Source: Escherichia coli (GTDB taxonomy: Bacteria > Pseudomonadota > Gammaproteobacteria > Enterobacterales > Enterobacteriaceae). From it: DNA of 64,000 nt. The notes below the pieces were generated by a model. That model made no database searches. It saw only the letters and a program-made list of their open reading frames with translations, and had not been told where the DNA came from. A program made the translations under genes and the position numbers. Positions 58,500 through 59,242 of the stretch are shown here, piece after piece. Where the stretch lies: the NCBI RefSeq assembly GCF_024223415.1, contig NZ_CP100501.1; one strand, given 5' to 3'. Numbering within the stretch: the stretch's first letter is position 1; every line of letters begins with the position of its first letter.

Positions 58500-59089
58500 T
58501 CAACAGGCTTAATGCTGTCCAGGCGCAGTCTGCTCAGACTGTCGTGGCTGCCACAGCGGCGTCCAGTGCTTTTGCTGTAGCACTCCTGCCCCCTGATACA
58601 CCATGCCGTTGGCGTTTCGTAGAGGCTGACACGTCGGGTTTTATCTTTAATGATGAGAAGCCCGGTGTGAGTTTTTGTCTTTTTCATCGGTGGGGTACAA
58701 ACGCAGAAATTTTGTTGTCATTACATCATCAGTTTTAGCCTGCAGAGACGCTGAAAAATCAGCGTTTTCAGACCCTGTTCAGGTTAGTGAATATTCTTGC
58801 CTGGCCTTTCGGCAATATCAATCCCCTGATGTGTGCACACGTAGTCACTTTCCGGCTTTATTTCTGTCCCTGACACAAAATACGTGGTGGCATGAAAAGG
58901 ATTGTGGCGGACAGGAAAACGATTAGAATAGCGGCGGGCGCTTGAGGCTGTATGCCGAAAGCGTTTTGTGGACGGCATGTAGCAGAAAGCCCCAGGCGAT
59001 TTTTTTATCAATCAACCCAGGGCCCACTGTAATGCCTAGACAACATTATAGTAGCCCGATGACGGCCGAAAGGCAATGGAGGGGCTGCG

Positions 59090-59242
59090 ATGCCACAACG
59101 AACGTTTTTAATGATGTTAATCGTCGTCTGTGTGACGATACTGTGTTTTGTCTGGATGGTGAGGGATTCGCTTTGCGGATTTCGTATCGAGCAGGGAAAT
59201 ACGGTGCTTGTGGCAACGTTAGCCTACGAAGTTAAACGTTAA
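59090..59242 (+). CDS. pndA: Hok-family type I toxin PndA (50 aa)
   Basis: Translated by hand: MPQRTFLMMLIVVCVTILCFVWMVRDSLCGFRIEQGNTVLVATLAYEVKR; overlapped out of frame by ORF 58942..59235 (Mok/PndC-like). Confidence 0.8.
   Translation: MPQRTFLMMLIVVCVTILCFVWMVRDSLCGFRIEQGNTVLVATLAYEVKR

Follow-up and report, generated by a model that had tools for sequence, protein, structure and literature searches.

The segment 58902-59364 of the 64,000-nt stretch of Escherichia coli contig NZ_CP100501.1 analysed here (the window) reads as an intact pndBCA cassette, a Hok/Sok-type type I toxin-antitoxin system for post-segregational killing as found on IncI1, IncK and IncB/O plasmids. Judging from its sequence, we put the probability of this reading at about 95%, and no observation speaks against it. 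The pnd system is a long-known plasmid addiction cassette: pndBCA serves as the addiction system of IncI1 plasmids, and its neutralisation cures the plasmid (PMC5330492), and the native pnd of R483 mediates post-segregational killing, with R483 PndA in use as a toxic control (bioRxiv 10.1101/2025.08.07.668861). Nothing in the biology of the present copy is new; its toxin was already annotated in RefSeq (WP_001302699.1) and its pndC by depositors.

The toxin gene pndA occupies 59090..59242 on the plus strand, starts with ATG, is preceded by the SD sequence GGAGG within 59078-59084, and encodes the 50-aa peptide MPQRTFLMMLIVVCVTILCFVWMVRDSLCGFRIEQGNTVLVATLAYEVKR. This peptide matches the Pfam family HOK_GEF (PF01848) far beyond chance (47.5 bits, where the cutoff is 22; E 1.3e-12; profile positions 3-42 of 42). 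With its 50 aa, a transmembrane helix near the N terminus, conserved Cys residues and LAYE in the C-terminal part, it has the traits of Hok/Gef membrane toxins. Its hydrophobic core spans residues 6-24 (mean Kyte-Doolittle 2.95). In the protein alignment it carries the family-invariant C14, T16, L18, R25, L28, C29 and L44-A-Y-E47, of which C14, C29 and L44-A-Y-E47 are unchanged across PndA, SrnB, the IncHI2 Hok and the Vibrio homologue. Thus, the Hok-like 50-aa peptide of the original prediction, with its start at ATG 59090, its hydrophobic core and its conserved C-terminal half, is borne out, as is the name pndA, since exactly this sequence is listed in public collections as Protein PndA (RepID=PNDA1_ECOLX), in addition to Hok/Gef family protein and protein HokA. 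RefSeq annotates it as Hok/Gef family protein WP_001302699.1 in the plasmid records pCh101 and NZ_CP032260.1, which match this region. The gene had also been said to escape a 60-aa ORF cutoff, and the listing with this default cutoff indeed shows the overlapping 97-aa ORF alone, because a product of 50 aa falls below the cutoff.

Among NCBIfam models, the top matches of PndA are HokA and the Hok family, and the cutoffs of both are missed (HokA NF007290, 66.7 bits versus 89; Hok subfamily NF007279, 41.5 versus 73). This shortfall has no bearing on membership at the Pfam level, since the narrower models were built for chromosomal HokA or R1-type Hok, and PndA is a separate branch. The coding sequence itself bears the mark of selection: among five pnd alleles, 11 of the 16 variable sites in the pndA coding region lie at codon position 3, and relative to the window the alleles differ by 3-8 synonymous and 1-4 non-synonymous codon changes. 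This pattern indicates that PndA is selected as a protein and is under purifying selection.

The cassette lies where a pnd locus is expected. Matches to the 601 bp around it occur in 1890 plasmid records, 1842 of them conjugative and 245 at >= 99% identity, and in 1216 of 5426 complete E. coli genomes the region is found nearly always on plasmids. The pnd DNA is 99-100% identical to that of hundreds of E. coli and Salmonella plasmids, and the region is 100% identical to pCh101 (IncK2/Z, MOBP, MPF_I). In pCh101 and in an IncI1/B/O plasmid, pnd is flanked by trbA-dqlB-nuclease on one side and excA-traY-traX-traW on the other; in R64 (NC_005014) it sits at the same trbA-excA position, named in RefSeq just "Hok/Gef family protein". 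From this gene order, the location between trbA/nuc and excA on an MPF_I/MOBP backbone is the canonical pnd position of IncI1-type plasmids. Two main pnd DNA types can be distinguished, the window's type at ~95-100% identity and that of most IncI1 plasmids at ~90%. The R64 protein WP_001331364.1 is the L003 allele, and the alignment with R64 pnd that the original prediction proposed as a check gives 46 of 50 residues (92%) identical to window PndA.

One may argue that the window holds a decayed or silenced pnd which no longer acts as an addiction module, for example after flanking deletions changed its expression or 3' processing. Compared with a typical IncI1/B/O plasmid, deletions of ~257 bp (at 58828-58837) and ~1.37 kb (at 59548-59552) do flank the cassette, and chromosomal hok loci are reported to be often inactive (bioRxiv 10.1101/2025.08.07.668861). 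Deleting pnd alone from the IncI plasmid pESBL did not measurably lower its stability either (PMC7602700), so the share of pnd in plasmid maintenance can be small. However, both deletions fall outside 58902-59364 and all mapped elements are intact, the 471-bp core is 100% identical to that of the undeleted plasmid NZ_CP032260.1 and at least 99% identical in 48 records, and pndA evolves under the purifying selection described above. Decay is thus very unlikely, and an intact addiction cassette is the reading followed here.

The elements of the toxin mRNA were mapped by comparing eight loci anchored at Rfam matches, namely the window, the pnd alleles L003, L008, L004 and L005, srnB (L009), the hok of an IncHI2 plasmid (L011) and a locus of Vibrio owensii (L010). 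L012, which gave no RF01794 match at the gathering threshold, was used in the protein alignment alone, and L006 and L007, partial remnants with no annotated toxin gene, were left out. A putative weak promoter for the pnd mRNA lies at 58902..58929 on the plus strand (-35 TTGTGG 58902-58907, 16-nt spacer, -10 TAGAAT 58924-58929); its -10 is kept in all five pnd alleles, and TATTAT, TATAAT or TATGAT stands at the equivalent place in the srnB, IncHI2 and Vibrio loci. From the -10 spacing and from position 1 of the Rfam model RF01794, the +1 was put at G58936, and the predicted full-length mRNA would thus run over 58936..59364 (+, ~429 nt). Its fold has a z-score of -5.85 against 100 shuffles.

At the very 5' end of this mRNA lies the candidate tac (translational activator) element GGGCGCTTGAGG, 58936..58947 (+), which may pair with either of two partners. 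The first is the fbi (fold-back inhibition) box CCTCAATGCGCC at 59293..59304 (+), which is complementary to tac; the second is the ucb or anti-SD box AAGCCCC at 58987..58993 (+), whose CCCC is invariant in 8/8 family loci. The ucb box was placed upstream of the pndC SD because the anti-SD is located upstream of the SD of the leader ORF in hok mRNA (PMC9841398); another candidate near 59050-59075 was rejected, having 0 expected base pairs. Between tac and ucb, a leader hairpin (58947..58983, +) is predicted by folding inside the tac-ucb stem, and 7 of its 11 pairs have two-sided changes across the family.

Folding the window RNA reproduces the closed and open states described for R1 hok mRNA (PMC9841398). 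In the full-length molecule, the minimum free energy (MFE) structure pairs 58937-58946 with 59294-59304 (tac-fbi, ~10 expected base pairs by partition function) and pairs ucb 58989-58992 with GGGC 59020-59023 of the pndC SD; forcing this RNA into the tac-ucb state costs 3 kcal/mol. When the mRNA is trimmed before fbi and begun at 58936, the unconstrained MFE structure is the tac-ucb stem, with the SD region 59016-59025 unpaired. When the trimmed mRNA is begun at 58937 instead, a local 5' hairpin forms (58938-58964, tac pairing with 58954-58964) and tac-ucb does not, with SD accessibility unchanged; this hairpin resembles the metastable structure of nascent hok mRNA (PMC9841398). The closed/open switch is therefore supported in silico and not proven, as it depends on the chosen 5' nucleotide.

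Evolutionary comparison also argues for both pairings. A duplex equivalent to tac-fbi is found 45-59 nt past the toxin stop in 7 of the 8 loci with covarying sequences, the pairs being GGGCGCUUGAGG/CCUCAAUGCGCC in pnd, GGGUGUCUGAG/CAGACACCC in srnB and GGGAGCU.../...AGCUCCC in Vibrio. The long-range pairing of 5' tac with 3' fbi is thus backed by covariation between pnd, srnB and the Vibrio locus, with a duplex energy that in some alleles is just modestly beyond that of shuffles (12/300 for the window, 78/300 for L008). No fbi was found in the IncHI2 locus L011, probably due to an IS421 insertion 79 nt past the toxin stop. For the tac-ucb stem with its enclosed hairpin, 90.6% of alignment cells are paired compared with 33-48% for slid partners, 9 pairs are changed on both sides, and none of 500 shuffles reaches the observed values, counts that reflect ~4 independent lineages and a structure derived from the window sequence, and that include extra unpaired cells from a MAFFT misalignment of the L011 5' end. 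The changes in the tac-ucb helix are CG to UA and UA to CG, and compensatory changes in the switch helices are seen in the relatives srnB, Vibrio and IncHI2.

The leader of this mRNA contains pndC, the homologue of mok, in the +1 frame relative to pndA. Its most likely start on sequence comparison is ATG 59032, which gives a frame of 67 codons (59032..59235, +) with a probable SD, AGGG, within 59016-59025. The original prediction had instead likened to mok/pndC the ORF of 97 aa at 58942..59235 (+), which opens with TTG 58942; its overlap with pndA in another frame (+1) was confirmed, and its start was not, as the conserved one is ATG 59032. That the 97-aa product is a genuine PndC protein with a function of its own would agree with the window frame being open from 58927 and with its annotation in several records, in which the overlapping frame appears as a 67-aa or 97-aa product named PndC, plasmid stability protein or counter protein to PndA. 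However, TTG 58942 lies within the tac stem, just 7 nt from the 5' end predicted for the mRNA, and has no SD. Moreover, a stop closes the extension in L005, and in L003, L008 and L004 it is shifted to another register, whereas the ATG is kept in 5/5 pnd alleles. The product matches zero families in Pfam or NCBIfam, and codon differences from the window in the pndC frame are nearly all non-synonymous (0-1 synonymous, 4-10 non-synonymous), with a stop never gained among the pnd alleles. A functional 97-aa protein is accordingly most improbable. From the patterns of codon change in the two overlapping frames, PndA is selected as a protein and pndC just for translatability; by this measure pndC is kept translatable and is not conserved as a protein, which fits the role of mok in hok/Sok (PMC4147584).

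Around the pndC start, the mRNA is predicted to form the target of the antisense RNA, a hairpin at 59026..59052 (+) with the pndC AUG in its 5' arm and a 9-nt loop, CCTAGACAA (59035-59043), that contains CUAG. On the opposite strand lies a candidate promoter for PndB, the Sok homologue, at 59048..59076 (-), with -35 TTGCCT (59076..59071), a 17-nt spacer and -10 TACTAT (59053..59048). The minus strand of the leader holds exactly one match to TTGNNN-N16-18-TANNNT in each of the 8 loci, and all 8 matches are in register, with the end of the -10 at a distance of 112-115 nt from where the mRNA starts. The match reads TTGCCT-17-TACTAT in all pnd alleles, TTGACC-18-TACAAT in srnB, TTGCAT-17-TACGCT in IncHI2 and TTGCCT-17-TAGTAT in Vibrio. 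A consensus promoter scan with a threshold of 9/12 reported neither the pnd nor the PndB promoter, both of which score 8/12, and both were assigned by comparative conservation instead.

From the promoter spacing and by analogy with R1 Sok, PndB would be an RNA of ~58 nt at 58984..59041 (-), give or take a few nt at its ends. In the predicted 58-nt fold (-21.5 kcal/mol), the first 13 nt form a single-stranded 5' tail, followed by a stem-loop, and the 3' end, CUUUCU, is rich in U; longer versions of 67-105 nt have fold z-scores of -3.8 to -4.3. The 5' tail is complementary to the pndC AUG and, with its GUCUAGG, to the mRNA target loop 59035-59043. Taken together, the comparison points to an antisense RNA encoded in cis, which has a promoter of its own and overlaps the start of pndC. 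The original prediction had expected an antisense Sok/PndB RNA upstream; such a gene can be mapped, and its place is not upstream of the locus but within the leader itself, where it runs antisense to the mRNA and over the pndC start.

A search of Rfam, also proposed at the outset, matched the model RF01794 ("sok") at 58936-59092 (+), over its full length (model 1-157) and with 125.6 bits against a gathering threshold of 59 (E 3e-28). The model matches on the same strand and at the same position in 7 of 10 other loci searched, and in 8/8 anchored loci it immediately precedes the toxin gene and has the same strand as that gene, with its end no more than ~12 nt from the toxin ATG. Because the match sits on the toxin strand, the RF01794 "sok" model is best read as describing the leader of the toxin mRNA and not the antisense strand. 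The label "sok antitoxin" and the plus-strand match might suggest that the Sok-like antitoxin is the 157-nt plus-strand segment 58936-59092. This is highly improbable: the match ends exactly at the toxin ATG and has the polarity of the toxin gene in 8/8 loci, so that its RNA could not be an antisense of the toxin mRNA. In addition, the conserved promoter within the segment faces the other way, and Sok acts by base-pairing with the leader of hok mRNA, over mok (PMC4147584).

Downstream of the toxin, an inverted repeat and folding place a stable stem-loop just past the pndA stop, at 59247..59279 (+). By analogy with R1, where a protective 3' hairpin is known (PMC9841398), this stem-loop may shield the mRNA from its 3' side after trimming. 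Beyond it, the full-length pnd mRNA could end either at a T-run directly after fbi (59305-59319, +) or at an intrinsic-terminator-like hairpin with a T-run (59338..59364, +; hairpin 59338-59353). The hairpin terminator 59338-59364 is common to L004 and L002 and absent from the IncI1 and IncK2/Z alleles, and no canonical hairpin terminator was found past fbi and the T-run in L003 or L005, nor within ~300 nt in the IncI1 and IncK2/Z lineages. Homology among pnd lineages ends right after fbi and the T-run, the sequence beyond fbi being lineage-specific. The T-run after fbi was ruled out as a family-wide feature, as it is absent in srnB and in the Vibrio locus. It is conceivable, though we consider it unlikely, that pnd transcription is terminated by the U-run in concert with the long-range tac-fbi helix or with a weak local hairpin containing fbi. 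If so, termination would be coupled to the forming of the translationally inert fold, and the hairpin 59338-59364 would be a later addition that alters the length of the trimmed tail and hence the timing of toxin activation.

The sequence-level requirements of a hok/sok-type module are shown above. How the cassette would be transcribed, processed at the 3' end of its mRNA, translated in a coupled manner, cleaved by RNase III and made to kill, and where its RNAs end, we infer from the work on R1 and R483, the mechanism and elements of hok/Sok having been described (PMC9841398, PMC4147584). Exonucleolytic 3' processing, cleavage of the duplex by RNase III and the death of plasmid-free segregants are known for R1 and reported as consistent for R483 pnd. 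The weak promoter would give rise to a stable mRNA of ~430 nt, in which 5' tac pairs with 3' fbi and ucb sequesters the pndC SD, so that ribosomes and antisense RNA would both be shut out. Slow 3' trimming would take off fbi, and tac would then move to ucb, which would free the ribosome-binding site of pndC and the target hairpin. In plasmid-carrying cells, the short and unstable PndB, made from the stronger promoter on the opposite strand, would bind the target loop with its free 5' tail and cover the pndC start. Translation of pndC would thereby be blocked, and that of the toxin with it, since we propose that pndA translation is coupled to that of pndC; the PndB-mRNA duplex would be cleaved by RNase III. 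After plasmid loss, PndB would decay first and the stored mRNA would be translated, and the 50-aa, single-helix PndA would damage or permeabilise the inner membrane, leading to cell death.

On sequence comparison, the window carries a variant allele of the IncI1 (R64-type) pnd, homologous to hok/sok of R1 and srnB of F. The closest known system is the pnd of IncI1 and IncB plasmids (R483, R16, R64): the toxin sequence is exactly the one named PNDA1_ECOLX, the IncI1/IncK-type alleles L003, L008 and L005 have the same pndC ATG, antisense promoter TTGCCT-17-TACTAT, tac box and fbi box, and the position between trbA and excA recurs in the gene map of R64. It differs from the common IncI1 allele in ~10% of its DNA, in 4 PndA residues and in ~5 positions of the PndB stem, and from IncI1 pnd in the lineage-specific sequence downstream of fbi, whereas the 5' tail of PndB is shared with the IncI1 allele. 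With the prototype hok/sok of R1, it has in common tac, fbi, ucb/anti-SD, an overlapping leader ORF, an antisense RNA over the start of that ORF and a protective 3' hairpin, a comparison made with the R1 elements as described in the literature, including PMC9841398. PndA is ~38-48% identical to the other Hok-family toxins compared, with 38-40% for the IncHI2-type Hok and 48% for IncF-type matches including SrnB, which comes to 46% in the protein alignment. The srnB/srnC locus of F likewise has the Rfam leader match (95.1 bits); compensatory changes preserve its tac/fbi and tac/ucb pairings, and its antisense promoter, TTGACC-18-TACAAT, is in register. In contrast to pnd, no out-of-frame leader ORF was found in srnB, and the 68-aa form annotated there is extended in frame.

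In summary, the main value of this analysis is one of annotation: a 50-aa toxin, a 67-codon leader ORF and an antisense gene of ~58 nt are all invisible at a 60-aa ORF cutoff. The practical gains are a corrected pndC start and coordinates for PndB and for tac, ucb and fbi, together with the caution that an Rfam "sok" match marks the strand of the mRNA leader and not the antisense RNA. The one point with potential for novelty is how and where the pnd transcript terminates in lineages that have no hairpin terminator after fbi. As a whole, pndBCA is a plasmid-addiction module that helps resistance plasmids persist in bacterial populations.

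The window is a mosaic relative of the IncK2/Z plasmid pCh101 rather than the same plasmid, since identity to pCh101 is 99.7% up to ~60318 and only 92% beyond ~60434 (60434-64000, from excA/traY onward). Compared with the IncI1/B/O plasmid NZ_CP032260.1, the window carries two deletions, one on each side of the pnd cassette. The upstream deletion (58828-58837) has removed ~257 bp, including a 243-nt hypothetical gene, and the downstream one (59548-59552) has removed ~1.37 kb, including most of a gene for a TnsA-N-terminal-domain protein, of which a remnant ORF is left at 59380..59595 on the minus strand. 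The ALIL pseudoknot (Rfam RF01497) is matched three times in the window: at 6132-6218 and 44391-44477 on the plus strand, ~38 kb apart, with identical scores (63.8 bits) and the same internal gap, and over its full length at 50042-50158 on the minus strand (116 bits). These scores, the shared gap and the full-length third match suggest two direct-orientation copies of one insertion sequence plus a third element.

Judged from its sequence, a second type I toxin-antitoxin locus lies 3 kb upstream of pnd (55817-56060). It comprises an AgrB match on the minus strand (55817-55904; RF02891, 51.8 bits) and, adjoining it on the plus strand, a 27-aa DinQ-like ORF (55977-56060; MINLLIIVLRAVVAVANAVIALRELVD), which is dqlB in the annotation of the matching plasmid pCh101.

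Downstream of the toxin gene, similarity among the pnd lineages stops directly after the fold-back inhibition (fbi) box and its T-run, both in the window (59304-59319) and in the pnd alleles L003 (~807-822) and L005 (~805-812). No canonical terminator was found within ~300 nt downstream in the IncI1 and IncK2/Z pnd alleles; a predicted terminator at 59338-59364 is present in the window's pnd lineage. In the hok-like locus of an IncHI2 plasmid (L011; NZ_AP027416.1, 603-682), IS421 starts 79 nt past the toxin stop, and a search there for an fbi-like sequence complementary to the 5' end of the mRNA found none; the fold-back inhibition element may have been lost from this locus. Another IncHI2 plasmid, NZ_CP060516.1, has a Hok-homologous coding region beside relBE (L012, 474-599), which RefSeq labels "DUF5431 family protein" and not Hok toxin, and no Rfam sok match at the gathering threshold was found at this locus.

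The match to RF01794, named "sok antitoxin", lies on the toxin-coding strand in all eight loci that carry it: the window (58936-59092), four other pnd alleles (L003-L005 and L008), F-type srnB (L009), the Vibrio owensii homologue (L010) and the IncHI2 hok (L011). In each, the match stops at the ATG of the toxin gene or a short distance from it. In practice, therefore, RF01794 models the leader of hok/pnd mRNAs; the true antisense gene, as predicted from sequence, is inside the RF01794 span on the opposite strand. Reading an RF01794 match without regard to strand would put the antitoxin in the wrong place.
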